A stretch of 42,809 nucleotides of DNA, taken from positions 1 to 42,809 of the forward strand of contig JAFQUU010000009.1 in NCBI GenBank assembly GCA_017408305.1, given 5' to 3'. Position numbers and translations under genes: made by a program. The notes below the pieces were generated by a model. It did no database searches. It was given only the letters and a program-made list of their open reading frames with translations, and was not told the DNA's origin. Shown piece after piece: positions 3,526-31,753 of this stretch. The stretch comes from Clostridia bacterium. GTDB taxonomy: Bacteria; Bacillota; Clostridia; Christensenellales; UBA1242. Within the stretch, counting starts at the first letter, position 1. Every line of letters begins with the position of its first letter.

Positions 3526-5964
3526 GTGAAAACGAAAAAACAAACTCAAGCCCCACCAAAAAATTCAATCATTTTTAAAACCCTTAACACTGTGCTTCAT
3601 GAAAGTATGATTCCTTACACAGAACATGTTGTTATGGACAGGGCTCTGCCAAGGGTTGAAGATGGCTTAAAACCAGTGCAACGCAGAATTTTGTATTCTA
3701 TGTTTGAACTTGGCGTTATGCCAGACAAACCTTACAGAAAATCTGCCCGTATTGTTGGTGATTGCATGGGTAAATATCACCCACATGGCGACAGCAGTGT
3801 TTATGATGCAATGGTGCGTATGGCACAAAACTTTGTGCTGAAGGCCCCACTTGTTGATGGGCACGGCAACTTTGGCAGTATTGATGGCGATAGCGCAGCG
3901 GCAATGCGTTATACAGAAGCACGCCTTGCACCACTTGCACTTGAACTGCTTAAGGACCTTGAAAAAAATACGGTTGACTGGACTCTTAATTTTGATGACA
4001 CACTTAAAGAACCAGTAACGCTTCCAGGACGCTTTCCAAACCTTTTGGTTAATGGTGCAACTGGCATTGCAGTTGGCGTTGCAACAAACATCCCACCACA
4101 CAACTTGTCTGAGGTTATTGATGGTGTTTGTGCGTACATCAAAAACCCAAAAATTTCGCTTACAAACATGATGAAATACATTAAGGCTCCAGACTTTCCA
4201 ACCGGTGGCAATATTATTGTAGGTAATGGGCTTAGGGACGCATATGCAACAGGTAAGGGCAAAATTGTTATTCAGGCAAAAACACATATTGAAAAAACGG
4301 GAGACAAGTCTGCAATTGTAATTACTGAAATTCCTTATCAAGTGAATAAGGCACAACTTCTTCAAAAAATTGCAGAACTTAAAGAAAAAGAGAAAAATCT
4401 TTTGTCTTATATTGGCGAAATCACTGATGAGACAGACCGTAATGGCCTAAGGGCAGTGATTAAAATCAAAAAAGGTGGCAACGCAAAGGCAATCCTAAAT
4501 TACCTTCTTAAAAACACCAATCTTCAGCAAAACTACAACATCAATATGGTGGCAATTGCAGGTGGCAAACCAAAACTTATGGGGCTTCTTGACATTATTG
4601 CTTACTATTCAGATTATCAAATCCAAGTCATTGTAAGGCGTACAAAACACCTTCTTGATGAGGCAGAAGACAGGGCCCACATTGTTGAAGGGCTTCTTGT
4701 TGCAATCAAAAATATTGACGACATCATCAAGATTATTAAAACTTCTCCAACCACTGCAGTTGCTAAAGAACGCATAATGAAAAAGTTTAAACTTTCAGAC
4801 CGTCAGGCTCAGGCAATCCTTGATATGAGGATTAGTCGCCTTGTGAATATGGAAGTTAAAAAACTGCAAGAAGAGTTTAAAGAACTTAAAGAAAAAATCA
4901 AAAACTATAAGGCAATACTTGGCTCAAAAACCATGCAAGAAGACATTTTGGTTAAGGAACTTAAAGATGTAAGAAAAACTTTTGGAGGAACAAGAAGAAG
5001 CAGTCTTGAAGTTGAAAAAGAAGAAAAACAAACAGAGATTTTTGACCTTGTTGAGTGTGATGAATTCTTTGAAACAAACTATGTTGCCCTTTCTGCAGAC
5101 CATCGCCTAAAACGCATCAACGCACAAAAGGCTTCGCAAGTTAAGTATCAAAGTTATGCAGAGCCTTATGAAATTTCAACTGATGCAATCAAAATCAACG
5201 ATAACGAAGCGTTTTTTGTGTTTACAAACAAGGGTAATTGCATAAAACTTAAAGTTAAGGAACTGCCACTTGGACAGTGGAAAAGCAAAGGTCAACTTTT
5301 AAGTGAACTGAAGAAAAATATTCTTTACAGCGAGTATCCAGTAAAAATCTTGCCAATAAAAGAAGGCAAAAACCAAAGTATTATTATCTACACCAAGGCT
5401 GGCAATGCAAAAATCACACCTGTGTCAGACTTTATCAGTTCAAGAGTTATGTTTAGTGTGATAAATCTTAAAGATAAGGACACTGTGATTAATGCTGAAT
5501 ACAACGACGAAAACCAGTATATTATTGCTGTAACCAAATGGGCATATTCGCTTAAGTTTGACAAAAAAGAACTGCCTGTGCAAAAGCGTGCATCATCTGG
5601 CACAAAAATCTTTAAACTGCAAGAAGGTGATGAACTTGTGTTTGCAGGCCTTACTCAAAAAACAGGGAGTCTAACAATCCTGACCAACCAAGGCAACGGC
5701 AAAAAAGTGCCTATTGGCGACTACGAAATTACACCAAAATATCGTAGAGGCCTTAAAACAATCAACCTAAAAAGCACAAGGGAATATGTTATGTTTGCTA
5801 AGTTTTCTGCAGGCAACTTTGATATTGTGATGGAAACCAAAGAAAAACTTGTTGTTTTTGGCACAGAAAAACTTAAGTTTGAAACACGCATTGCAAAAGG
5901 CAAACAAATTGAAAAACTAAGATTTAAAAATGTGTATGCGGCAGTTGACAAGTCTACACTTTAA
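3526..5964 (+). CDS. Type IIA DNA topoisomerase subunit A (GyrA/ParC family; ParC-like)
   Basis: 812 aa, GTG start. HPHGD and [10 protein letters not shown] (catalytic Tyr region). I could not find a GyrA-box (QRRGGKG-like) in the C-terminal domain, which favours ParC. Confidence 0.9.
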
Positions 5965-6928: not shown

Positions 6929-7415
6929 GTTTATTATCCTTGGGGCAACTGCGATAATTTGTGGGTATATCGGGTTTGGAGTGTCTAGGTTTTACACAAA
7001 CCGAAGCAAGTTTTTTAAAAGCCTTGAACTACTTTTTGACAAACTAAAGTCTGAAATTAGTTTTTCTCAAAACAAACTTATTGAGATTGTTTCTAGTTAT
7101 GAGTGTCCAAGTACAGAAGCAAAAAAACTTATACAAAACTTTGTGGACTGCTTAAATTTTGACAAGCCCATATCAAAAGAAAATTTGTTTACTGGAATTA
7201 AGATTTTACATGAAGAGGAAGAATCTTTTTTAGAAATCTTTTTTAAAACCCTTGGCAAGTTTGATGCCTTAAATCAAACCAGCCAACTTGAAAATCAAAA
7301 AGTGGAACTTGGGGTGCTGTACAAAAAAGCAGATGAAGAAGCCAAAAGGTATGCCCCGTTATATTCAAAACTTGGCATAATTGTGGGGCTTGTGATTGCC
7401 CTTGTGTTTGCATAA
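6921..7415 (+). CDS. spoIIIAB: Stage III sporulation protein AB
   Basis: ATG 6921 follows GGAGGTTGAGGAGG and overlaps the spoIIIAA stop. 164 aa with an N-terminal TM helix. The track ORF from 6837 is an in-frame upstream extension. Confidence 0.8.
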   Translation: MIKFIILGATAIICGYIGFGVSRFYTNRSKFFKSLELLFDKLKSEISFSQNKLIEIVSSYECPSTEAKKLIQNFVDCLNFDKPISKENLFTGIKILHEEEESFLEIFFKTLGKFDALNQTSQLENQKVELGVLYKKADEEAKRYAPLYSKLGIIVGLVIALVFA

Positions 7416-7427
7416 AAAGGAGAATTT

Positions 7428-7622
7428 ATGAGCGTTGAAATTATATTTAAAATTGCTGGAATTGGCATTTTGACAGCAGTTGTTGGACAAGTTTTAAAGC
7501 AAAGTGGCAAAGACGAAATTGCAACCCTGACAACCCTTGCTGGCCTTGTGATTGTGCTTTTTATGGTTTTAGACCTTATCACAAATTTATTTTCTACAGT
7601 AAAAACTATGTTTGATTTTTAG
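7428..7622 (+). CDS. spoIIIAC: Stage III sporulation protein AC
   Basis: 64-aa two-TM protein in the conserved operon position. Confidence 0.8.
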   Translation: MSVEIIFKIAGIGILTAVVGQVLKQSGKDEIATLTTLAGLVIVLFMVLDLITNLFSTVKTMFDF

Positions 7623-7639
7623 GGGGGGGAGAAAAACTT

Positions 7640-8026
7640 TTGGACATCTTTAAAATTTTGGCAATAGCAATCTTAACCTGCATTGCAAGTTTGATTGTCA
7701 AACAGGTAAAGCCCGATTTTGCAAGTTTGGTAAGTCTTGCTGGGGGAGTGGTAATCTTACTTCTTCTTATCAATTACATCTCAAGCATTCTTGATGTTTT
7801 TAGGGGGATTATTGATAAAGCAAATTTGTCGCCTACACTTTTTTCTTCAATCTTAAAAATCATTGGTATAGGATATTTAACAGAGTTCACAGCAAACCTT
7901 TGCACTGACACAGGAAACTCTAGCCTTGCAAGCAAGGTGGGGCTTGCAGGCAAAATTATAATACTGTTTCTTGCCCTTCCAATCATTACAAATCTTCTTG
8001 AAGTTATTATGGGGATTTTGCCATGA
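7640..8026 (+). CDS. spoIIIAD: Stage III sporulation protein AD
   Basis: 128-aa polytopic membrane protein. TTG start preceded by a G8/GAG ribosome-binding tract. Operon position fits. Confidence 0.8.
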   Translation: MDIFKILAIAILTCIASLIVKQVKPDFASLVSLAGGVVILLLLINYISSILDVFRGIIDKANLSPTLFSSILKIIGIGYLTEFTANLCTDTGNSSLASKVGLAGKIIILFLALPIITNLLEVIMGILP

Positions 8027-9219
8027 TGATTAAAAAAATTTATGCACTTGTGGTGGCAATCCTGCTTGCAATTTTGCCACTTACGCTTTCAACGGGTGTA
8101 AATGTTTATGCCGACAACGGCAGTGGACAAACTGCAAGCGAAGAGTTTGATGAAACAATAAATGACCAACTTGAAAATCTGGACTTATCAGGCCTTAACA
8201 ACTTTTTTGAAAACTATTGTGATGATAAACTAGGCTTCTTTCAAGGGGGAAGCATCTTAGACAAAATTTCTGCAATCATAAATGGCGATTTTGGTGCAGA
8301 CAGCCAAACTGTTCTTGGGGGCATTGCAAACATATTTTTGGAAGAAATTGTCAGTTTTTTACCACTTATCTCCAGTATTATTGCAATCTCGGTTCTTGCA
8401 AGTTTGATTACAGAACTGAAGTCCACAAACAAGTCTATTGGCGACATTGTGCATTTTGTGTGTTTTGGGGTGATTGTTGTGCTGATTATGAGTGCAGTAA
8501 CCAAAATGATTGCACTTGCTTCATCGGCATTAACGCTACTAGATACGCAGATGGAAATTATGTTTCCAATACTTCTTACGCTTTTAACTGCCATCGGTGG
8601 CACTGTGTCTGTGGCAGTATATCAACCAGCAGTTGCAGTTTTGACATCAATTGTAACCAAAATTTTTGCTGGTGTGCTTCTTCCTCTTTTTGTATTTGCA
8701 GTTGTGCTTACAATCATTTCGCACATCTCACCAAACATAAAACTGGACAAAATAGCATCTTTTTTGTTCACACTTTTTAAGTGGATAATTGGTATTGTTT
8801 TTACTGTGTTTATGGCATTTTTGGCAATCAAGGGCATAACTGCAGGAAGCATAGACAGTGTGTCGTTTAAAACAGCAAGATATTCTCTTTCAACCTATGT
8901 GCCAATTGTTGGTGGGTACTTAAGCGAAGGTTTAAATCTTATTTTGGCAAGTTGCGTGCTTATCAAAAACGCAGTTGGCACTGCTGGGCTTTTCATTATG
9001 TTTTCAACTATACTTGTGCCACTTGTACAACTGGTTCTGTTCATGTTTGTCTTAAAGTTTTCTGGTGCAATTTTGCAACCACTATCTGACAGCAGGGTTT
9101 CAAACTTTTTAGGGGGGCTTTCAAAAGTGTTTTTAATGCCAATTGTTATGATACTTGCAGTTGCATTTATGTATGTGGTTTTTGTGGGGCTTATAATGTG
9201 CACAAGTGTTGGCATTTAA
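8023..9219 (+). CDS. spoIIIAE: Stage III sporulation protein AE
   Basis: 398 aa. Signal peptide, soluble N-domain, then a polytopic membrane domain. Operon position fits. Confidence 0.85.
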   Translation: MMIKKIYALVVAILLAILPLTLSTGVNVYADNGSGQTASEEFDETINDQLENLDLSGLNNFFENYCDDKLGFFQGGSILDKISAIINGDFGADSQTVLGGIANIFLEEIVSFLPLISSIIAISVLASLITELKSTNKSIGDIVHFVCFGVIVVLIMSAVTKMIALASSALTLLDTQMEIMFPILLTLLTAIGGTVSVAVYQPAVAVLTSIVTKIFAGVLLPLFVFAVVLTIISHISPNIKLDKIASFLFTLFKWIIGIVFTVFMAFLAIKGITAGSIDSVSFKTARYSLSTYVPIVGGYLSEGLNLILASCVLIKNAVGTAGLFIMFSTILVPLVQLVLFMFVLKFSGAILQPLSDSRVSNFLGGLSKVFLMPIVMILAVAFMYVVFVGLIMCTSVGI

Positions 9220-18715: not shown

Positions 18716-19420
18716 ATGGAAAAAAAACTTACAGGAATTGTTGTCAGCCTAAAACCGTATGGTGCTGACTTTATGATAACTCTTATTACTGCAGAAGAAG
18801 GTCTTGTTAATGTGCTTGTTGAAAACGAGCCTAACTTTTTTAAATTTGCCAAAGAACTTTTAACATTTGGATATTTTACAGTTAAAGTCAAGGGCAGTTT
18901 TTTTTGCGTACTTCAAAAATGTGAGGTTATTGATACATTTTTAAAGATAAAAAACTCTAGCATAAAATTTACAGAAGCAAAAAACCTTTGTGGTGTGGTG
19001 AAGGAGGTTGCACAACTTAACGATAAAGACACGCCACTTTTTATGGAGTTTTGCGAAAGTTTAAAGGCTCTTAATTATAAAGATTTGCCTAGTAATCTTG
19101 TTTTAACTAAATTCTTAAGCACAATATTTGTTGGATTTTCAAAGTCCTTAGACTTTAAAACTTGCGATGTTTGTGGACAAGCACTAAAAAACTTTTATTT
19201 TTTAAATTTTTCAAATTGCACTTTTGTTTGCCAAAATTGTCAGGAAAAACTTTCAAGACCATTATCCAAACAAACTCTTGCAGCACTTAAGCAGGTTATT
19301 GCAACAAACTATGATGATATAGAAACCTTAATTAATTTAAGTTATAAAAACCTACTTGTCTTCTTAATTGAAATCTTTAAATTTAAGGTTGGTGAAAGGT
19401 TTAAATTCTACTCCGAGTAG
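18716..19420 (+). CDS. recO: DNA repair protein RecO
   Basis: 234 aa. OB-fold N-terminus, Cys4 zinc finger CDVCGQ...CQNC. Synteny after era. Confidence 0.85.
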   Translation: MEKKLTGIVVSLKPYGADFMITLITAEEGLVNVLVENEPNFFKFAKELLTFGYFTVKVKGSFFCVLQKCEVIDTFLKIKNSSIKFTEAKNLCGVVKEVAQLNDKDTPLFMEFCESLKALNYKDLPSNLVLTKFLSTIFVGFSKSLDFKTCDVCGQALKNFYFLNFSNCTFVCQNCQEKLSRPLSKQTLAALKQVIATNYDDIETLINLSYKNLLVFLIEIFKFKVGERFKFYSE

Positions 19421-21440: not shown

Positions 21441-22748
21441 TTAATCGCAAAATTTCTTTGCAAAAATATAGTCAAAAATGCCACCTACAACAAAATTAAA
21501 TAAAAGAACGCAAGGATATAAAAATGTTGTTGCGAAGCCTAGGCAAGTTGCAAAAGAAAAACCATTATTAAACAAAAGATTTAAAGAAAATACGGCAGCA
21601 ACGCCCACAAAGAAGATTGCAATTGACACAAATAAATTACTATTTGAACTGTGAATTTTCCTAAATTTGTTTTTGGTAATTAGGTAATAAAGTGCAGGAA
21701 TAGCAAATATTATTGGCATTATTAAATACGCAATTGGATACTCAACTGAGCCATATATATTTGAAAAAATTAAGTAAATTGCAAGAGAACTGACAAAAAT
21801 TAGAGAAAATATTGTTAAGTATTTAGCGAAAAGATGTTTTGTCGATATTTTACCAAAACTTTCAGCAATTTCTTCGTTATCTTCCATATTTGCAGAAAAC
21901 TTTATTTGCATATCATCATATCTTGCTTGCAACTGATTTACAGACACAAACTCATCATCATCTGCATCGCCAAGTTTTATAAAGTTTGCTGATTTGCTCA
22001 TCTCATTATATAGGGCTTCAATTTTGTCAGCATCTGTTTCTTTTTTTCTGGATGAACGAATTTTTTGAACGACTTCACCAGTAGGCTCAATTTCCAAATT
22101 AAGACCACTAAGTTTTTTTACTTTAGGTATTTTTTCTTTTGGCATGGTTTCGGTAATAAATACGCCACCATCGGTGTGGGTTTCTTCTTGAAAACCTTCA
22201 TTTTCGTAATATTTTTCTTGGCTATTTTTTTCATTTTTAGAGTCTGGAATTATGTATACATCATGGGCATCCAAAAACACTCCGTCATCTTTTGTCGTTG
22301 TTTTTTCTTCCTTTTTAAGCGTATCTAAAAAAGTTTTACTGTCAAAGTTTTGCTGTTTTTTTTGTTCCTGATTTTTTTCAGTGAACAACTTGTCATTATT
22401 TTTTTGAAAATCGCCAAATTCGTAATATTTTTTTGGGGTATTTTGACTGTCAACAGAAAAGTTTGGAAGAACAGCATTTTCTTGTTCCTCTAGATATTTT
22501 TTGCCAGAATCAGTCAATTTATAATAATGACGCTTTCCACCATTTTTGCTGTCTTTCCAATATGACGAAATAAAACCTTGTTTTTCCATTCGTGAAAGCG
22601 TGCCATATAAAGTTGGTTGTTTTACAGAGACTTGGTTATCAGATTTTTTATGTAAATCATTTAAAAGTTCGGCACCATATTTGTCGCCGTCTAATAAACA
22701 AGATAATAATATTGTGGAGATTTGTCCACGAGGAATTAAATTATTCAT
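21441..22748 (-). CDS. PadR-family transcriptional regulator fused to a C-terminal multi-TM membrane domain
   Basis: 435 aa. N-terminal winged helix (KYGAELLNDL...QPTLYGTLSRMEKQGFISSYW...RHYYKLTDSGKKYL), a low-complexity linker, then about 4 TM helices. Confidence 0.75.
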   Translation of the reverse strand: MNNLIPRGQISTILLSCLLDGDKYGAELLNDLHKKSDNQVSVKQPTLYGTLSRMEKQGFISSYWKDSKNGGKRHYYKLTDSGKKYLEEQENAVLPNFSVDSQNTPKKYYEFGDFQKNNDKLFTEKNQEQKKQQNFDSKTFLDTLKKEEKTTTKDDGVFLDAHDVYIIPDSKNEKNSQEKYYENEGFQEETHTDGGVFITETMPKEKIPKVKKLSGLNLEIEPTGEVVQKIRSSRKKETDADKIEALYNEMSKSANFIKLGDADDDEFVSVNQLQARYDDMQIKFSANMEDNEEIAESFGKISTKHLFAKYLTIFSLIFVSSLAIYLIFSNIYGSVEYPIAYLIMPIIFAIPALYYLITKNKFRKIHSSNSNLFVSIAIFFVGVAAVFSLNLLFNNGFSFATCLGFATTFLYPCVLLFNFVVGGIFDYIFAKKFCD

Positions 22749-22954: not shown

Positions 22955-22982
22955 CTTTTCGCTAAAGTTGTCTTTAGCGAAA
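22955..22982. repeat. attL (dif-like core): CTTTTCGCTAAAGTTGTCTTTAGCGAAA
   Basis: Direct repeat of 28074-28101. Internally an 11-bp inverted repeat around TTGT. Confidence 0.85.
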
Positions 22983-22984
22983 TC

Positions 22985-23131
22985 TTATAGATGACACTGT
23001 TGTTCAACAAAATCTTCTAAAATGATTCTCACTAAATCACTAGTCTTTCTACGCTTTTCCAATGCAATCTTATCTAATTGCATTTTTAATTCTTCTGGTA
23101 GGCGTACAGCAAAAAGTATTTTTTTCTGCAA
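22985..23131 (-). CDS. Ribbon-helix-helix (Arc/CopG-like) DNA-binding protein, prophage-encoded
   Basis: TTG start at 23131, downstream of AAAGGAGGTGA. 48 aa: MQKKILFAVRLPEELKMQLDKIALEKRRKTSDLVRIILEDFVEQQCHL, a beta-strand/helix/helix RHH pattern. The track ATG at 23197 would read through the SD and promoter. Confidence 0.65.
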   Translation of the reverse strand: MQKKILFAVRLPEELKMQLDKIALEKRRKTSDLVRIILEDFVEQQCHL

Positions 23132-23175
23132 GGGGAACTCACCTCCTTTTAAGTTAAATATTGTATAACAATTTA

Positions 23176-23204
23176 ATAATACAAAAAATGTTAACAAATG
23201 TCAA
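23176..23204 (-). promoter_or_regulatory. Promoter of the RHH gene (TTGACA-17-TATTAT on the - strand)
   Basis: - strand TTGACA (23204-23199), 17-nt spacer, TATTAT (23181-23176). Palindrome ATTGTATAACAAT (23160-23172) sits at about +1 as a candidate operator. Confidence 0.55.
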
Positions 23205-23249
23205 ACAAAAAACAACAAGTTTTTAAACTTATTGTTTTATATTGAATAT

Positions 23250-24257
23250 TTAATCAATAGACCGAAGTAATCGACAAATTTGACTTTCCTTTGCTCTTCT
23301 TTTTAAAGCCAAATACTCTTCTTTCGACAAATCAGTCCTTTCTAATTGTAAAGCAAGGTTATACTCTGCTAACTCTTTTCTTGATTTTTTTATACTTTCA
23401 ATTACTGCATGATTTTCTAAGTCATATAAGTCATCATAATATTTAGGTGGTTTTATTTTTAGAACCTTTCTTTTACCATCACTTAAAATTATTTCATCGG
23501 TTTGGTATATTTCATGCTTATTCTCTTCAAAAAATTTTCTAGCAATACCAGGGGAACGAGAGCAATTCATGAACTCTGGAACTAAGCCATAAGTCAAATC
23601 AGATTCTTCATTTAACACGAAACCACTTGTTTTGCCTTTTTGTTTTTTCATAACATACCGAGCAGTGTAAGCAATAGAATTCCAAGTTACCTCACCAACT
23701 GAACAAAGACCTTTATTCCATACTTTCTCTATTATTTCAGAGCGATATATTTTATCGCCTGCCTTGTTTGTGAAAAAATATTTAAGGTCATTAAGTGGGC
23801 AATTAAATAATATCATATGAAAATGTGGTCTTGACTTTTTTGTGCCATATTCACCACAACCAAAAAATCTTATATTATCTATACCAAAATGATAACTCAT
23901 GTATCTTCTTAAATCTTTCATAAATTTTTGCATATCTTTTTTAACCAAAGTTGGTTTCTTCTGCACTTCACCAGTTTGAGCATTTAAAGATTTTACAAAA
24001 GTTAAATTATCATCAGAGTAAGTCAATGTAACAAAATAATTATTAGAATGTTCTTTACTTTCAATTAAACAGCGATTGGCCCACATTCTTGAATTTGCAA
24101 GTCGGCAACCAACGCATTTTCCACAAGGAATCTCAATAGGTTCAAATATTTTTGATAAATTATCATACTCAAATTGAGTTTTAGGAAAATAAATATTTTT
24201 CTTGCCATTGGAATTTAAACCTTTTGAAATTGCATGCAAGGGACTAAAACAACTCAT
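23250..24257 (-). CDS. Microviridae replication initiation protein VP4 (rolling-circle HUH endonuclease)
   Basis: 335 aa. CGKCVGCR Zn-like N-terminus, YFVTLTY (motif 1), HFHMILFN (HUH), YTARYVMKK (catalytic Tyr motif). GAGGT RBS. Confidence 0.9.
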   Translation of the reverse strand: MSCFSPLHAISKGLNSNGKKNIYFPKTQFEYDNLSKIFEPIEIPCGKCVGCRLANSRMWANRCLIESKEHSNNYFVTLTYSDDNLTFVKSLNAQTGEVQKKPTLVKKDMQKFMKDLRRYMSYHFGIDNIRFFGCGEYGTKKSRPHFHMILFNCPLNDLKYFFTNKAGDKIYRSEIIEKVWNKGLCSVGEVTWNSIAYTARYVMKKQKGKTSGFVLNEESDLTYGLVPEFMNCSRSPGIARKFFEENKHEIYQTDEIILSDGKRKVLKIKPPKYYDDLYDLENHAVIESIKKSRKELAEYNLALQLERTDLSKEEYLALKRRAKESQICRLLRSID

Positions 24258-24576
24258 CGTTGTACCTCAACTTTCAAAATGTTTTATTTAATACTGACAA
24301 CTAAAATTGTGTCAGTCAGCACCATTACATCAAGTAACTAATTGGTGCTGACTTTGGCACAACCAAAGTATTGTATTTTTTTAAAGTAAATTTAAAGCTA
24401 TTACTTTCGGCATCCGTTCTTTAATGCGTTACTCCAAGCGATAAAGTACTTACAAAAGGGATATCCCTCTTTGCCCTTCGGCAAATTCACCCTTAGCAAT
24501 TATGCCGAATTGTAACGCCACGTTATAGAATAAATGGGAATTTTGCTAATAAAAAAAGTAATAAATATTATTACTT
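24258..24576 (-). other. Structured non-coding region of the prophage (candidate origin/regulatory region)
   Basis: No ORF longer than about 10 codons. At least five perfect stem-loops: 24294-24315, 24315-24352 (10-bp stem), 24351-24369, 24457-24468, 24470-24485. An AT hairpin at 24554-24578 follows VP2. Confidence 0.6.
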
Positions 24577-24921
24577 TTAATATAATCTTCGCATAGTCCT
24601 AGATAAATGCCTTGTAGCAAGGGCTAGTGCAGTATTAACCAACATACTAAGACCATTAGAGCTCTTCCCTACACCACTTGCAGAAGAACCGGACGGCGTT
24701 GAAGCGGCGGCACCATTGCCACCACCAAACATATTAACAGGATTTAAACCTGCTTTTTTCATGTCTTCAACTGCTCTTTGATAAGCGCTATTAGACAATT
24801 CAGTTTGCCAATCCCTTTGTTTTTGAGCTTCTTCGGCATTAAAGGCAAACTCTGCTTTTTGAGCAGAAGTTGCACCAGACAAATCATTGAATATACTCCC
24901 AATATTATCTAAAAAACTCAT
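24577..24921 (-). CDS. Microviridae minor capsid / DNA pilot protein VP2-like (short form)
   Basis: ATG 24921 follows GGGAGG, 8 nt after the VP1 stop. 114 aa. AYQRAVEDMKKAGLNPV motif and a Gly/Ser-rich C-terminal half. The track start at 25053 overlaps VP1 and is rejected. Confidence 0.7.
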   Translation of the reverse strand: MSFLDNIGSIFNDLSGATSAQKAEFAFNAEEAQKQRDWQTELSNSAYQRAVEDMKKAGLNPVNMFGGGNGAAASTPSGSSASGVGKSSNGLSMLVNTALALATRHLSRTMRRLY

Positions 24922-24931
24922 AAAGGCCTCC

Positions 24932-26611
24932 CTATAATGATTTAAGACCAGGAACTGAATAAATAGGCATAACCCTAGTACAAATATTCTTAAAGTAGAA
25001 ATCAGCAATGAATTGGTCTTCCGTAGATGAAGATACTGATAAGGTCCTATCAAGATTGGCAGTTGTTTCCTCTAACCAAGTAGAGCCAAGAACTGGTTTA
25101 GAGGTATATTTGTCTGCATAATGCCAATTATCTAATGGCTGAGTATGAGTAGAACGAAATGCACCACTAACACGAGATGGTTTATACCTATACTCTGCCC
25201 ATGCTTCCTGATAGCCGAAAACTTCATCATCAACAGTTGTGCCTTGTGCATAGATTTCCTTATTAAATACAGGCTGTTCACCAATGTTAGCAAGAGCAGG
25301 CCAATAATAGTCAAACCTCTTTTTCCTTGACCAAAAACGCTCTATTCCTTGTTGATATGTGTGTTCGGTTCTAACACAAACAAGACCAAGTAATATGCCA
25401 TGCTCAGTAAACGACTTGGTAAAGCTAGAAGATTTATCGCCTGTCAAAGAATAAGCGGCAGTATTACCTTGAGGAGATACATCATCAGTTGAGGATGTTT
25501 GTAAAACTTGAGAAATATTAATAGGAATCCTCTTACCACCAAGATACTCTGGTCTTTGCTGGCGAGCATCTGGAGAAACAACGCCAAAATGAGATTTAAT
25601 AATTTCTGCATAACGAGTACCACCACGAGCATCTCGTTCATACAACTTCTGCACTGCAAAGGCTTGTCTTAATTGGTTTATTGTTGATGCAGTTGCAGTT
25701 GATAAGTCAGCAATACCAGTTGCTTTTAGACCAGTATTTGTACCATCAAATCCAATAGTTTTGCCAGCAGTCCAAGCTGTATTGCTACCAGCTGTACTGC
25801 CAATACCAGTATAATTTGAAGTTGAAAGCAAATAAGGATTATTAGAATCAGAACTTGCAGAAACAAAAACACCTTTATCTGTACCATTAGTCCATATAGG
25901 ATTCTTGCCATCAGAAGAAAGAGAAATAGACAAAGGCGCACTAGAACCAAGTGGAATATTTACATCTGGACCTTTTTGTGGGGCTGGAAGACAACTTGTA
26001 AAATAATCATGATATTTGTTAACAGGGGCAATCCCACCTCCAGTACAGCCAGACATCAAAAAGTTGGCATAATTAAAATTGCTTAAAGTACTATTGCTAT
26101 CTGAAAGACTAAAAGATGCAGAAGATTGCAAATTTTGGTCTCTAAACCACTCATTCCATGTCAAAACGTAAGCTCTAAAAGGTAATGCCGAAACAGAAAG
26201 ATTTTTAACCCCAGTAGGAATACCCATATAATCAGCAATAGAACCTTTAAACCAACCAGTAGGTGCAATTGCTTGAGGAACCTCATACTCTGTTGGACTT
26301 TCCCAATCTGGATTACTGGATTCACCATTAAAATACTTCCAACTACTCCAAACCAACCTGTTCGGTATAAAGAAATAATAGAGGTCAAGATAACAGTTAT
26401 CCATAACAGGGTGAACAGGCGTGGTCATTCTAACCACACAAGAAGTTTCCATTTTAAAAGTATCACCAGGTAAAACTTCATCAACAAAAATTGGAATAAG
26501 TTTGCCAGCGTTAAAAGTTGTCTTATGTTGACTACTTCTATCAAAGGTTGAACGAGGCATTGACAAAAAAGTTGGATTTACAGCAAAACGACTTTCTACA
26601 TTTCTATTCAT
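24932..26611 (-). CDS. Microviridae major capsid protein VP1 (F-protein family)
   Basis: 559 aa. The N-terminus PRSTFDRSSQHKTTFNAGKLIPIFVDEVLPGDTF...MDNCYLDLYYFFIPNRLVW closely resembles chlamydiaphage-type VP1. AGGAGG RBS. Confidence 0.95.
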   Translation of the reverse strand: MNRNVESRFAVNPTFLSMPRSTFDRSSQHKTTFNAGKLIPIFVDEVLPGDTFKMETSCVVRMTTPVHPVMDNCYLDLYYFFIPNRLVWSSWKYFNGESSNPDWESPTEYEVPQAIAPTGWFKGSIADYMGIPTGVKNLSVSALPFRAYVLTWNEWFRDQNLQSSASFSLSDSNSTLSNFNYANFLMSGCTGGGIAPVNKYHDYFTSCLPAPQKGPDVNIPLGSSAPLSISLSSDGKNPIWTNGTDKGVFVSASSDSNNPYLLSTSNYTGIGSTAGSNTAWTAGKTIGFDGTNTGLKATGIADLSTATASTINQLRQAFAVQKLYERDARGGTRYAEIIKSHFGVVSPDARQQRPEYLGGKRIPINISQVLQTSSTDDVSPQGNTAAYSLTGDKSSSFTKSFTEHGILLGLVCVRTEHTYQQGIERFWSRKKRFDYYWPALANIGEQPVFNKEIYAQGTTVDDEVFGYQEAWAEYRYKPSRVSGAFRSTHTQPLDNWHYADKYTSKPVLGSTWLEETTANLDRTLSVSSSTEDQFIADFYFKNICTRVMPIYSVPGLKSL

Positions 26612-27162
26612 TAAATATTACCTCCTAAATTAACACCTTGGCTTTGAACAGGCGTGCTTTGACTTTCCATAGATACATTAATAGGTTCAACATTTTGAAC
26701 TTGAGGTTGAACAATAGGCTCTACCTTATTAATTTGTGGTTGTAAATGCTTATTTATCTTTTCTTCAAAAGTACCATTTGAAATACTTGCAACAAACTCT
26801 GACATAGAGTGGTTAAACTCAGAACGGACTGCAACAGGCATTTCTTTAAATAAGGTTTCAGCATTTAATATGATTTCTTGAGCATCATTTAAAGACTTTG
26901 GCATATTAGAAATATCTGCAAAAAATCCTTGAGATTGATTTAATGCTAAAGTATCTCCATTAACATGTCGTTCTAAAATGTTATAAACCAAACATTCTTC
27001 CTTATGAGCTTGAATTTCTTTGTAAATATTTCTTTTACCAGTTTGTTTAACTTCTTTTTTCCCAGTTTCTTTATCTATAACAAGAGAGTAAACTGGCACT
27101 ATATCTTCACCAGAGGGACTAGCTTCTACTGGTGGTTTTTTTGACCTTGAATAAAAATCCAC
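26611..27162 (-). CDS. Microviridae internal scaffolding protein VP3-like
   Basis: 183 aa, GTG start overlapping the upstream stop. IYKEIQAHKEEC...GDTLAL...AQEIILNAETLFKEMPVAVRSEFNHSMSEFV matches the VP3 pattern. Its stop overlaps the VP1 ATG (TAATG). Confidence 0.75.
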   Translation of the reverse strand: MDFYSRSKKPPVEASPSGEDIVPVYSLVIDKETGKKEVKQTGKRNIYKEIQAHKEECLVYNILERHVNGDTLALNQSQGFFADISNMPKSLNDAQEIILNAETLFKEMPVAVRSEFNHSMSEFVASISNGTFEEKINKHLQPQINKVEPIVQPQVQNVEPINVSMESQSTPVQSQGVNLGGNI

Positions 27163-27416
27163 TACTCACCTGCCTTTGTAATAACATCATTTGCTTTAAT
27201 TAAAAACTTAACTTCACTTGTCAATATTCCAGTATCATCATCAAAAGTACCTAAGCACCAAAGTTCTTTATCCTCTGGGTTTGTATTTATTGCATTTTTT
27301 TGCACTTCATTAGCACCATTTGTAAATTCACGAATGGCAACACCTTCATTATGTGTAAAGAATGGATTCATAAATCCTATTTTAGTATCTTTTATTGCGA
27401 AAACTTTTAGCTGCAT
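27162..27416 (-). CDS. Microviridae small non-structural protein (VP5/ORF5-like)
   Basis: 84 aa. KVFAIKDTKIGFMNPFF...GVAIREF...NPEDKELWCLGTFDDDTG resembles, from memory, the conserved gokushovirus ORF5 family. Confidence 0.6.
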   Translation of the reverse strand: MQLKVFAIKDTKIGFMNPFFTHNEGVAIREFTNGANEVQKNAINTNPEDKELWCLGTFDDDTGILTSEVKFLIKANDVITKAGE

Positions 27417-27591
27417 ATTTTTTATTCTCCTTTATTAATTTTTTTTGTGATTTTAATTCATTTTTAAATTCTTTTATTAACAATTTGTATTCTTCAACTG
27501 TTAATAATACAAGAGGGTAAAAATAAATTAGAGGTTTATTGTTTTTATATGTATATCTAACAATAATTTCTTTATCAATTTTTGCTCTCAT
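27382..27591 (-). CDS. Hypothetical Lys-rich prophage protein
   Basis: 69 aa. Its ATG overlaps the stop of the upstream 31-aa ORF (ATGA) and its 3' end overlaps the VP5-like start by 35 nt. No motif recognised. Confidence 0.35.
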   Translation of the reverse strand: MRAKIDKEIIVRYTYKNNKPLIYFYPLVLLTVEEYKLLIKEFKNELKSQKKLIKENKKYAAKSFRNKRY

Positions 27592-27683
27592 AAGCGAGTA
27601 CCACCACGCATTGAAGTTGGCACTATATTTATCAACTTAGATTTAACTGCTGTATGTCTAAAGATTTTTTTATCTTTTTTCAT
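27588..27683 (-). CDS. Small basic DNA-binding peptide (gokushovirus ORF8 / phiX J-like)
   Basis: Below the ORF-track size cut-off. MKKDKKIFRHTAVKSKLINIVPTSMRGGTRL (31 aa, highly basic). The C-terminal MRGGxRL resembles the chlamydiaphage ORF8 end as I remember it. Confidence 0.5.
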   Translation of the reverse strand: MKKDKKIFRHTAVKSKLINIVPTSMRGGTRL

Positions 27684-27684
27684 G

Positions 27685-28017
27685 TTAGTTGGACGACGTT
27701 TCAATGCACACCTCCTTTTTTTGTGGAGTTGATAATATTTTTTCTATTTCTGCAATAAAATCTTCTTCTGCAAAATCAATATCATTTTGTAAACACAACA
27801 TTTGAATTTGATTCAAAACAAGACTACGCTTCACTTCACCACTACCTCTGCCAATAAGTTTTTCAACTTGGTTAATAATATTAGGCAGTTTTTGGACAAT
27901 TTGAGCAAGCTTAAGTGTTTTCGTTTTTTTATTGCTTTTAAAGAAATTAACAACTGCAATAATTGATGTTACAATTGTAATACAACAGGTAACAATAATC
28001 TCTGGGTCATCAAACAT
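27685..28017 (-). CDS. Single-TM membrane protein, phage holin-like (LL-H-family resemblance)
   Basis: ATG 28017 lies 5 nt after AAGGAG. The track GTG at 28023 overlaps the SD. 110 aa. N-terminal TM (IIVTCCITIVTSIIAVVNFF), then GSGEVKRSLVLNQIQMLC...DIDFAEEDFIAEIEKIL. Confidence 0.5.
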   Translation of the reverse strand: MFDDPEIIVTCCITIVTSIIAVVNFFKSNKKTKTLKLAQIVQKLPNIINQVEKLIGRGSGEVKRSLVLNQIQMLCLQNDIDFAEEDFIAEIEKILSTPQKKEVCIETSSN

Positions 28018-28073
28018 ATTCACTCCTTCTTTAATTTAAAATTGTTATACAAGACAAAAAAACCAAAAAAAAA

Positions 28074-28101
28074 CTTTTCGCTTTAGTTGTCTTTAGCGAA
28101 A
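28074..28101. repeat. attR (dif-like core): CTTTTCGCTTTAGTTGTCTTTAGCGAAA
   Basis: Direct repeat of attL with two substitutions (AA to TT) in the left arm. The right-arm palindrome extends to 28103 (…GCGAAAAG). Confidence 0.85.
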
Positions 28102-28260
28102 AGTTAAAAGTCTCAAAATATTTTGAAAATTTGTGCCACCCTTTTCTACAAAAAAATTAAAAAAACTTAAAAATTGCATAATGATTGTTGTTATAAAACT
28201 TTAAAAGTACAAAAAATTTGCTTTTGCTGTGGAATTTGCTTGCAAAATATTGTTTAAATA

Positions 28261-28286
28261 AAAAAAATTGGCTCGTAAAGCCAATT
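28261..28286 (-). terminator. Terminator of the 317-aa gene
   Basis: AATTGGCT (28266-28273) / AGCCAATT (28279-28286). The A7 run on + gives a T run on the - strand. Confidence 0.7.
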
Positions 28287-28357: not shown

Positions 28358-29311
28358 TTATACACCCTGCACTAATTTATTAAAGAATTTGTTGATGTCT
28401 TGATATTGGACTTGGCACATATCATCTTCAAAAATCTTTTTGTTTGTAGAAGATATTGAAAACAATTTTCTTATAGGAGTGTTTATTAAATAATTTGTTG
28501 CAAAAACAAAATTATCATAAATATCTTCACTTTCAAACGCTGAGTATGGCAAATTTGCAATCAAACTTTCCATAAAAAGCCCTTTTGAAGAGTCCTGCAT
28601 CAAATGTTCATAAAGACCTTTGAAACAAATAACAAGTTGCAGAAGCTTTTCTGAAAAAGATTGTTTTAAAAGGTGGTTTATGTTTTGAAAGTAATCAACC
28701 AGTTTGAATTCTTTTAGTTTTTTCTTGTTTGGTGCGTAAAACAAAAATGTTGAGTCTTCTTTTTTGATGACAGGATAAATTCTTATATTATACGGCACAT
28801 TTTTACCTTGCACGCCAATTACGCCTCTTGCAGAAAAAGCAACATCATCTTGGGTGATTTCTTTGGCGATTGCATGCACAAGGTCTTTTGTAAAATAAGC
28901 CAAATTATAGTCTTCTTTGTGTGTTTCATAAAGGTTTACAGGTGCTTCTTCTGCACTTTGTTTTTTGCGTTTTTTCTTCTTTTTTTTCTTTTTACGGTTT
29001 GCCCAAGCGTATTTTAACCTTTCTTTAAAGATTACCCATTTGTTTTTAAAAAGTTTATGGGTGTTAAGTTCTATTTGAGGGTTATTAACTAAAACAAAGA
29101 GGTCTATCGTTGAAGAAGGAAGCACGGCACCAGAATAAAATGACCCAAATGGCAAAATTTCAAAGTCTTTTGATACATAAGGATTTACATCTGAAATGGC
29201 TGAAAGTGCATTTTGAACAATTGTTGTTGCAAAACCTAGGCCCTGCAGTGCCACTTCATCATTTAGGCTTTCTGCAAAATTTTTTATGGTTGATTTATCA
29301 ATTTTTATCAA
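28358..29311 (-). CDS. Hypothetical protein with a degenerate Pol-beta/CD-NTase-like nucleotidyltransferase fold and a poly-Lys insert
   Basis: 317 aa. PFGSFYSGAVLPSSTIDLFVLV resembles the hG[GS]-x(9-13)-DxD NTase motif, but the second acidic residue is Phe. Insert NRKKKKKKKKRKKQ. Confidence 0.45.
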   Translation of the reverse strand: MIKIDKSTIKNFAESLNDEVALQGLGFATTIVQNALSAISDVNPYVSKDFEILPFGSFYSGAVLPSSTIDLFVLVNNPQIELNTHKLFKNKWVIFKERLKYAWANRKKKKKKKKRKKQSAEEAPVNLYETHKEDYNLAYFTKDLVHAIAKEITQDDVAFSARGVIGVQGKNVPYNIRIYPVIKKEDSTFLFYAPNKKKLKEFKLVDYFQNINHLLKQSFSEKLLQLVICFKGLYEHLMQDSSKGLFMESLIANLPYSAFESEDIYDNFVFATNYLINTPIRKLFSISSTNKKIFEDDMCQVQYQDINKFFNKLVQGV

Positions 29312-30712: not shown

Positions 30713-31753
30713 ATGAGTCAGTACTTTATTGAAAGAGATAAAAAAAATTTGAATGAAATTAAAAATTATCAAAAAAAACTGCCTTCTTTTTGCCAAAATT
30801 ATTTTTTGGATAAAGAAACCACTTCTTCCACTTCTACCCGTCTTGCAATTGCTATAGACCTAAGCGTTTTTTTTGAGTTTATTAAAAAATACAAATTTTC
30901 TGGCACTAAAGTTGAAAATATCTCCTACCACCAAATGTCTAAAATTGAAAGTGATGATATTTCAAGTTTCTTAAGTTATATTTCTTACTACGAGCATAAT
31001 GGAAAAAACTATAAAAACTCCAATAACGGAAAGTCCAGAAAACTTGCAAGCATTAGAAGCCTATTTAAATGGCTTTATAAGAAAAATTACATACAAAGTG
31101 ATGTCGCTGCCAAAATTGATACACCAAAAAAGCACGAAAAGCCTATTGTTAGGCTTGAGGCAGATGAAGTTGCAAAGATGCTTAACACCACAGAAGATGG
31201 AAGTTTTGAAATGTCAAAACGCCAAGTAAAATACCTGCAAAACACTTCTAAACGAGACACTGCCATCTTAACGCTTTTTTTGTCAACAGGAATTCGCGTA
31301 AGCGAATGTGTTGGGCTTGACCTTGATGACTTTGATTTTGACAACAATGCATTTAAAATCACAAGAAAAGGTGGCAATCAAACAATCTTGTATTTTACTG
31401 AAGAAACCAAAGACGCCCTGCTTGATTGGCTTGAGGTTAGAGCAAATTCTATGATTCCAGAAGAAGAAACTGCGATGTTCACTTCACTACAAAAAAGACG
31501 GCTTACTGTTCGGGCTGTTGAATACATCGTAAAAAAATATGCAAAGTTTGTAAACCCACTGAAAAAAATATCCCCACATAAACTGAGAAGCACTTTTGGC
31601 ACCAACCTATATCGTGGGACAGGCGATATTTATATTGTTGCAGATGTTTTGGGACATAAAGATATTAATGTAACAAAACGCCACTATGCAGCCATTGCAG
31701 AAGACTCTAAAAAAACTGCTGCCCAAATTATAAAACTTAGAGATAAAAAATAG
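30713..31753 (+). CDS. Xer-family tyrosine recombinase, XerS-like (long N-terminal domain)
   Basis: 346 aa. Catalytic blocks TGIRVSECVGLDLDDF (Arg), ITRKGGNQT (Lys hairpin), HKLRSTFGTNLY (HxxR), LGHKDINVTKRHY (His, Tyr). Length and the RKGG block resemble streptococcal XerS rather than the ~300-aa XerC/D. Confidence 0.85.
   Translation: MSQYFIERDKKNLNEIKNYQKKLPSFCQNYFLDKETTSSTSTRLAIAIDLSVFFEFIKKYKFSGTKVENISYHQMSKIESDDISSFLSYISYYEHNGKNYKNSNNGKSRKLASIRSLFKWLYKKNYIQSDVAAKIDTPKKHEKPIVRLEADEVAKMLNTTEDGSFEMSKRQVKYLQNTSKRDTAILTLFLSTGIRVSECVGLDLDDFDFDNNAFKITRKGGNQTILYFTEETKDALLDWLEVRANSMIPEEETAMFTSLQKRRLTVRAVEYIVKKYAKFVNPLKKISPHKLRSTFGTNLYRGTGDIYIVADVLGHKDINVTKRHYAAIAEDSKKTAAQIIKLRDKK

Follow-up and report, generated by a model that had tools for sequence, protein, structure and literature searches.

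Gene content of the element and its flanks

The stretch of DNA analysed here, referred to as the window, is the entire 42,809-bp contig JAFQUU010000009.1 of a metagenome-assembled 'Clostridia bacterium' (NCBI proteins MBQ27134xx), and sample names in matching ENA records suggest an origin in a ruminant-gut survey. The ORF (open reading frame) listing and a repeat search place nine intact, co-oriented, minus-strand microvirus genes at 22955–28106, between two imperfect copies of a short site (Table 1). An earlier note, made from the letters of the window, had described this segment as a gokushovirus-like Microviridae prophage with nine overlapping, intact genes, and this description is borne out: neighbouring ORFs overlap by 1–35 nt, none of the nine contains an internal stop, and the ratio of non-synonymous to synonymous substitution rates (dN/dS) lies at 0–0.26 for all nine in comparison with a 91%-identical circular relative. 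All nine ORFs are thus under purifying selection. The homologies claimed for VP1 (559 aa), the VP4 motifs, VP3, VP5, a VP2-like protein and a J-like peptide are likewise recovered as Pfam and PHROG profile matches. VP1 is 46% identical to the VP1 of Enterogokushovirus EC6098 across 99% of its length, and VP4 carries the HUH motif HFHMILF at residue 145 and the tyrosine motif YTARYVMKK at residue 197. An F-type jelly-roll capsid protein, an HUH Rep, a VP3 scaffold, VP5 and a VP2 pilot protein are all present, as is characteristic of gokushovirus-like Microviridae (Family 3 sensu Kirchberger 2022), and the 5,119-bp size fits the small circular single-stranded DNA genome, packaged in T=1 virions, that is expected of this family. 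In agreement with the earlier statement that it has no integrase of its own, Pfam and PHROG profile searches returned no recombinase family match among the nine ORFs. The claim that the surrounding chromosome carries sporulation genes also holds, as the host flanks encode SpoIIIAA, AC/AD, AE, AF and AH, YqfD and YabP, and the host therefore possesses genes characteristic of endospore formers.

Table 1. Positions of the element, its att sites and the host genes around it in the window.
Feature	Position	Strand	Evidence or remark
Host PadR-family gene, next to attL	21441..22748	-	Adjoins nucleotidyltransferase-like gene at empty sites
attL	22955..22987		Core 22956-22983, TTTTCGCTAAA GTTGTC TTTAGCGAAAT; host-attB left arm, phage-attP right end
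Ribbon-helix-helix (RHH; CopG/Arc-like) protein, 48 aa	22985..23131	-	PF01402 17.7 bits (below cutoff of 20.5); phrog_7325 1e-4; dN/dS 0.07
Sigma-70-like promoter, best in element	23161..23204	-	TTGACA-17-TATTAT, 11/12 matches, promoter itself 23176-23204; overlaps TTGTATAACAAT motif; candidate RHH promoter and operator
VP4 rolling-circle replication initiator	23250..24257	-	PF23343 6e-20; phrog_942 3e-110; dN/dS 0.04
Non-coding VP2/VP4 spacer, 319 bp	24258..24576		322 bp in circular relatives
VP2-like DNA pilot protein, 114 aa	24577..24921	-	phrog_11693 7e-24; dN/dS 0.06
VP1 major capsid protein, 559 aa	24932..26611	-	PF02305 2e-174; phrog_514 2e-224
VP3 internal scaffolding protein	26611..27162	-	PF09675 9e-32; dN/dS 0.19
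VP5-like protein	27162..27416	-	PF20577 2e-21; dN/dS 0.04
orf69	27382..27591	-	Gene call in independent assemblies; dN/dS 0.26
J/VP8-like basic peptide, 38 aa, putative DNA-binding	27588..27704	-	phrog_10695 1e-6
Holin-like (LL-H family) membrane protein, 110-112 aa	27685..28023	-	PF09682 25.6 bits (cutoff 24.9); phrog_6918 8e-8; dN/dS 0.21
TTGTATAACAAT motif, inverted copy	28041..28052		Between attR and holin-like gene; candidate second RHH operator
attR	28074..28106		Core 28075-28102, TTTTCGCTTTA GTTGTC TTTAGCGAAAA; phage-attP left arm, host-attB right end
Host nucleotidyltransferase-like gene, next to attR	28358..29311	-	Own terminator-like hairpin 28266-28286
Xer-family tyrosine recombinase, 346 aa, outside element	30713..31753	+	2.6 kb from site; candidate integration/excision enzyme

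Integrated, empty and circular forms

The two repeats start 5,119 bp apart and are identical at 29 of 33 positions (26/28 in a 28-bp frame), each copy being itself an 11-6-11 inverted repeat. The 28-bp direct repeats of the earlier note are therefore real and correctly spaced, but they are imperfect and the right copy runs to 28106. The circular attP junction and the empty attB site, which the note had proposed to look for, are both found in assemblies. In two empty-site contigs (L014 and L022) the phage is absent, the PadR gene directly adjoins the nucleotidyltransferase-like gene, and attB reads TTTTCGCTAAA GTTGTC/GTTGCC TTTAGCGAAAA. Flank identity to the window is 97.1% and 98.6% for the two alignment blocks of L014, which overlap on the window by exactly the 28-bp core, and about 87–93% for L022. 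Circular units of 5,125 bp with terminal overlaps of 141 or 55 nt (assembler k-mer) occur in four assemblies; in gene order they match the prophage, to which they are 91% identical, and their attP reads TTTTCGCTCCA GTTGTC TTTAGCGAAAT. Circles of ~5.1 kb, which the note had proposed to search for, exist in the form of this relative; a near-identical deposited phage was not found, the best DNA matches covering at most 26% of the element at 66–72% identity. A search of the JGI metagenome collection for the window's own site gave 0 matches.

Comparison of the four sites reveals that each of attL and attR combines attB and attP sequence, exactly and in reciprocal fashion; as read from these sequences, this is the characteristic pattern that conservative site-specific recombination leaves when it occurs inside the centre and right arm common to both sites. 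The identical insertion was assembled independently from another sample (L013, 99.97% identity), and it is hence no assembly artefact. Fixation of the same block in all relatives, or its inactivation, would have spoken against a prophage; the empty sites in L014 and L022 and the uninterrupted ORFs contradict both. Given the empty sites, the circular attP-bearing relatives and the purifying selection on each of the nine ORFs, the evidence supports a complete, intact gokushovirus-like prophage without its own integrase in a sporulation-competent Clostridia metagenome-assembled genome (MAG), and we hold with very high confidence that the element is a genuine, recently active temperate microvirus. 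Integration targeted to a tRNA gene was ruled out, as the window contains 0 tRNA genes.

The insertion site at the replication terminus

The cumulative GC skew of the window climbs to a maximum at ~22 kb and then declines, and at this position mainly plus-strand genes give way to mainly minus-strand ones; as the skew peak and the orientation switch coincide there, the insertion site lies at the replication terminus. attB is a non-coding site of 28 bp in which two 11-bp arms, perfect inverted repeats of one another, enclose a 6-bp centre, the geometry of an Xer core site. Its length, its arms and 6-bp centre, its non-coding nature, the skew switch and its conservation across lineages (see below) are all hallmarks of dif, and one copy is present per uninfected contig examined. 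We therefore consider attB to be most likely the host dif, i.e. the chromosome-dimer-resolution site. It is not a canonical dif, for which the window holds a single chance-level match to the conserved core, with 3 mismatches and inside VP4. Since the neighbouring gene already possesses a terminator-like hairpin, the view of the att palindrome as nothing but the terminator of that gene was rejected as a sufficient account. The earlier note overlooked both the dif-like nature of the repeats at the terminus and the Xer-family gene 2.6 kb away, which together point to the likely mechanism of integration.

The predicted product of this gene, a tyrosine recombinase of 346 aa, has XerS as its top NCBIfam match (NF003462, 187 bits against a cutoff of 267), followed by XerC, XerA and XerD. 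With 164 bits for XerC (cutoff 335) and 148 bits for XerD (cutoff 330) it stays outside canonical XerCD, and its best PDB match is XerD (9e-19). The conserved catalytic residues (R, K, HxxR, H, Y) all have matching sequence motifs. Thousands of homologues of ~343 aa occur in Clostridia MAGs, including those of Christensenellales and Ca. Caccovivens, in stable housekeeping contexts where serS, spoIVB-like peptidase, recN and argR genes adjoin. Since the recombinase falls under the curated thresholds of XerS, XerC, XerD and XerA and the site is unlike difSL (the dif of streptococci and lactococci), recombinase and site are assigned to no named Xer subtype. On balance, we favour this neighbouring recombinase as the catalyst.

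Related prophages and uninfected relatives

Related prophages were found in long MAG contigs of Lachnospiraceae (L001), unclassified Clostridia (L003), Peptostreptococcaceae (L004) and Oscillospiraceae (L011), and each is flanked by its own 11-6-11 dyad site as repeats; in a further contig of unclassified Clostridia (L002) one dyad site stands beside phage genes. Examples of such sites are TCTTCGCAAAA CCTGTC TTTTGCGAAGA and TATTCCCAAAA TTGTGA TTTTAGGAATA. In L011 and L004 the site has a Xer-family gene 0.2–3 kb away. The prophage of L004 marks a switch of both GC skew and gene orientation, and in this contig a XerS-like gene follows mutL-miaA at a distance of 3 kb, as in the window, while the gene 177 bp from the L011 site encodes a protein more XerC/D-like than XerS-like. 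The rabbit-gut MAG contig of L003 (CANQDP010000010.1, 8229-18700) contains two related prophages in tandem with a period of 5,173 bp, beside RNase Y, and three further partial att-like copies stand just past them, at 19018, 19056 and 19240. As a positive control, the related gokushovirus prophage of a Gammaproteobacteria MAG (L005, 354-kb contig) is flanked by canonical dif, ATTTAACATAATATACATTATGCGC (ATTTAACATAATATACATTATGCGCAGT), at 28-55 and 4981-5008. One phage group is thus seen with two very different dif types.

Uninfected relatives retain the site. In L228-230 a single dyad site occupies the syntenic gap, within about 3 kb of a skew flip, and the site of L225/226 is separated from the xer gene by 9.7 kb. 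When half of the L225/226 site was used to scan metagenomes, 120 stretches were returned, of which 44 contain the full 28-bp site, once each, and none of these 44 carries phage genes. Synteny like that of the window is seen in L244, L318 and L322 from the same scan. The distance from recombinase gene to site, 2.6 kb in the window, is reduced to 150–550 bp in L241, L275, L301 and L313. Site changes between lineages are mirrored in both arms such that the dyad symmetry is kept; judged from the sequences, this would fit a single protein species acting on both arms, and selection for a hairpin would give an equal pattern.

Several further observations were made in the course of these searches. A generic palindrome, TTCGCNAAA-N6-TTTNGCGAA, proved too unspecific as a query, since none of the 120 stretches that it retrieved from IMG/VR contains microvirus genes. 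L021 (11724-21593 of an 81.5-kb contig), a close relative whose RNase Y is 95% identical to that of the window, has another gene set after RNase Y, beginning with an IS200/IS605-type Y1 transposase; PadR, the att site and the serS-xer block are absent within 10 kb after RNase Y, and this terminus region looks rearranged. In L251 the dyad site has a partial Xer-like fragment (1329-1619) as its immediate neighbour, and 6 kb off there is a full-length Xer homologue (7272-8285), which may reflect duplication or decay of a recombinase gene near the site.

Proposed mechanism and alternative explanations

We put at roughly 80% the probability that the element is a temperate gokushovirus-like microvirus, functional now or until very recently, that was inserted by a host Xer recombinase at a dif-like site. 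It is most likely an integrative mobile element exploiting Xer (IMEX) that uses a non-canonical, probably single-recombinase dif. In agreement with such elements, it encodes no integrase, its attP is a mimic of the host site, and reciprocal hybrids are found at attL and attR; from these features we infer that integration and excision depend on Xer. In the proposed mechanism, the double-stranded replicative form would carry attP, a 28-bp mimic of the 11-6-11 dyad-symmetric attB of the host, itself placed at the replication terminus and most likely the host dif. A host Xer-family tyrosine recombinase, most likely the 346-aa XerS-like protein, would swap strands within the shared centre and right arm, by which the 5,119-bp genome would become inserted and the hybrids attL and attR formed. 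These hybrids stay near the consensus, which should permit excision by the same enzyme and would explain the coexistence in nature of integrated, empty and circular forms.

A number of observations weigh against this proposal. The window is one contig of a MAG, so that the rest of the genome could hold canonical xerC/xerD and dif; the score of the recombinase is under the curated cutoffs for XerS, XerC, XerD and XerA; no Xer gene is present within about 10 kb of the prophage in L001 and L003, and in L231-233 a Xer homologue is present with no dyad site within 10 kb. The circles are only 91%, not ~100%, identical to the prophage, and circular contigs could in principle stem from tandem prophages, as in L003. 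The assignments of the RHH and holin-like proteins both come from weak profile scores, and dimer resolution at attB, like the action of the neighbouring recombinase on it, is deduced from sequence features. Part of this evidence would also suit an Xer-exploiting integration catalysed by other host recombinases (e.g. XerC/XerD-type paralogues encoded elsewhere), with the neighbouring 346-aa gene uninvolved: the window shows just 42.8 kb of the genome, the prophages of L001 and L003 lack a nearby Xer gene, and the recombinase adjacent to the L011 site is the more XerC/D-like one. We nevertheless judge this to be unlikely, as the site does not resemble canonical dif (the sole core match in the window being the one with 3 mismatches in VP4), and as site and 346-aa-type recombinase are linked at 150–550 bp in several uninfected relatives. 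Moreover, the arms are perfectly dyad-symmetric in the attB of L014/L022 and in at least one copy in L001, L002, L003 and L225/226, and this perfect symmetry suggests that one protein species binds both arms.

That the phage inserted without Xer, by the HUH Rep (VP4), by hairpin-targeted or by homologous recombination, at a palindrome that is a mere transcription terminator, appears very improbable to us. HUH enzymes are able to act on hairpins, and the site is a perfect hairpin-former between two genes, but the reciprocal hybrids, with exchange confined to a 17-bp identical stretch over the central 6 bp, fit a conservative tyrosine-recombinase exchange; furthermore, the upstream host gene already possesses a terminator-like hairpin, distant lineages repeat both the fixed 11-6-11 geometry and the terminus position, and relatives in Proteobacteria use canonical dif in a XerC/D-dependent manner (PMC7062461). 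Still less credible, to the point of being negligible, is a fixed, domesticated or decaying remnant, or a chimera assembled from host and free phage DNA, even if the source is a metagenome-assembled genome: presence is polymorphic with empty sites of 97–98.6% flank identity, the junctions were assembled independently from another sample at 99.97% identity, and the ORFs have 0 internal stops, dN/dS ≤0.26 and circular relatives. Integration by a host Xer recombinase at the dif-like attB thus accounts best for the locus.

A candidate regulatory module and other features

The two non-canonical accessory genes reported earlier, for an RHH protein and a holin-like protein, are present and under purifying selection, but their profile scores are weak, that of the RHH protein being under the cutoff. 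A GGAGGTGA ribosome-binding site precedes the TTG start codon of the RHH gene, whose stop codon directly adjoins the att site. In the circular form an inverted pair containing TTGTATAACAAT (window 23161-23186 and 28027-28052) flanks the RHH gene together with attP, and a shorter core, TGTATAACA, is shared by the circular relative L015, which is 91% identical, and by the sequence adjoining the att site in L001. RHH homologues adjoin the att site in L001, L002 and the faecal microvirus MG641184. With four faecal microviruses examined, the holin-like gene is present in L001 and in 4/4 of these, and RHH homologues in L001, L002 and 2/4; in the phage collection, holin-like homologues are confined to 8 faecal-microvirus records. 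Neither gene was found in the 80 closest VP1 relatives from IMG/VR (≤64% identity), hence these provide no extra attP examples. On this pattern the RHH protein is a candidate regulator of lysogeny or transcription, and RHH gene, attP and holin-like gene together may constitute a module for lysogeny and host adaptation. The small RHH protein, encoded beside attP behind the strongest promoter-like site, would then regulate phage transcription, and integration at attP would part the RHH promoter from the string of genes running from the holin-like gene to VP4.

Regarding the remaining genes, VP2 counted from its ATG measures only 114 aa, as it does in all close relatives; a truncated pseudogene was ruled out because this length is kept in the gene calls of L013, L015-L019, L023 and L024 and dN/dS is 0.06. 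The J-like peptide is 42–68% identical in relatives and shows 3 synonymous and 0 non-synonymous differences from the circular relative. orf69 has no family match in the Pfam and PHROG profile searches. The VP2/VP4 spacer is an atypical gap in a tightly packed genome, with terminator-like hairpins inside, and could hold the replication origin or a regulatory region. In the host, the 317-aa product of the nucleotidyltransferase-like gene contains ~12 Lys/Arg (KKKKKKKKRKK) encoded by a long T/C-rich homopolymeric stretch (window 28960-29000) that is possibly prone to slippage.

Comparison with known systems

Gokushoviruses are among the most abundant gut phages, and a confirmed host or a known lifestyle is available for very few of them. 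The present locus ties one gokushovirus clade to the sporulating Clostridia as a concrete host group and to a temperate lifestyle, with attB, attP, attL and attR all in hand. In wider terms, and with odds that we place slightly short of even, the findings may reflect an undescribed Xer/dif system widespread in gut Clostridia, with a perfectly dyad-symmetric 11-6-11 dif and a single ~345-aa XerS-like recombinase often encoded beside it, together with a mammalian-gut gokushovirus clade, equipped with RHH and holin-like genes, that turned temperate on Gram-positive spore-formers by mimicry of this site. Site and recombinase could serve as a terminus marker or as a genetic tool.

Microvirus prophages that exploit dif are established in Enterobacteriaceae and proposed in Bacteroidetes (PMC7062461), and lysogeny of Enterogokushovirus EC6098 requires xerC, xerD and its dif motif (Kirchberger & Ochman 2020, PMC7062461). 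EC6098 and the other gokushovirus prophages of Enterobacteriaceae resemble the element in their integrase-free genome, in the host and phage copies of a 28-bp 11-6-11 site, and in the coexistence of integrated and excised forms. Here, however, the host belongs to the sporulating Clostridia, the site is dyad-symmetric rather than canonical dif, and the candidate enzyme is a single XerS-like recombinase, whereas EC6098 uses XerC plus XerD; RHH and holin-like genes are present, whereas a 'repressor' is not mentioned for EC6098 in PMC7062461. The earlier note held that described microvirus prophages come mainly from Bacteroidetes and Enterobacteriaceae and not from endospore formers, which overstates their rarity and is out of date: complete microviral prophages in isolates of Erysipelatoclostridium and Mammaliicoccus sciuri have been reported as the first in Gram-positives (Kirchberger et al. 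2022, PMC9239249), and gut gokushoviruses were predicted to infect Clostridiales (Shah et al., bioRxiv 10.1101/2021.07.02.450849). The former are, like the present element, complete microvirus prophages in Firmicutes, a likeness by description only, as the one sentence that reports them describes neither integration site nor mechanism. Within the library of literature searched, neither the Firmicutes integration site nor its non-canonical dyad symmetry nor a link to a XerS-like recombinase was found to be described. The prophage itself is thus not unprecedented, and the added value lies in the mechanism and in the candidate host dif/Xer pair that it exposes.

Four faecal microviruses (MG641184, PQ006515, OM869640 and OM869517; L234, L236, L235 and L237, respectively) share a holin-like gene that is 49–54% identical. 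An RHH homologue is present in MG641184 and OM869517, and a dif-like dyad site lies between VP4 and the holin-like gene in MG641184 and PQ006515. They differ in that they are circular virome genomes only, with VP1 identities of 41–55% and records that note no integration or host. In reverse complement, the PQ006515 site has GCTGTC TTTTGCGAATA in common with the host site of L225. Such dyad sites could be used to predict the hosts of faecal microviruses, and published host-less genomes of this kind may become linkable to hosts through their dif mimic.

The XerS/difSL system of streptococci and lactococci (PMC1914069, PMC2965235, PMC5357621) is similar in that XerS is the best-scoring model for the recombinase, the protein has about 350 aa and its gene is linked to the site near the terminus, and the arms are alike in style (difSL TTTCCGAAAA compared with attB TTTTCGCTAAA). 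However, the site here comprises 28 bp with a 6-bp centre, in place of the 31 bp and 11-bp centre of difSL (PMC5357621), and the recombinase reaches 187 bits, under the XerS equivalog cutoff of 267, its gene lying at a distance of 2.6 kb in the window. As noted by Nolivos et al. (2010), difSL was then without a known mobile element, and our results suggest that single-recombinase Xer systems, for which this was once doubted in the case of XerS/difSL, are exploitable by mobile elements.

By analogy, the closest conceptual precedent is the discovery of dif/XerL of Legionella through the element LME-1 (PMC9765430), in which a dif-mimic element likewise led to a non-canonical dif, whose inverted-repeat arms are long and uninterrupted and which is served by a single dedicated recombinase. 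The two cases differ in phylum, recombinase clade and type of element, and the Legionella system is experimentally proven; dif and xerL are moreover >400 kb apart in Legionella, in comparison with 2.6 kb between site and recombinase gene in the window. As with LME-1, the phage described here points to the likely dimer-resolution site and recombinase used by a large group of bacteria, most of them uncultured.

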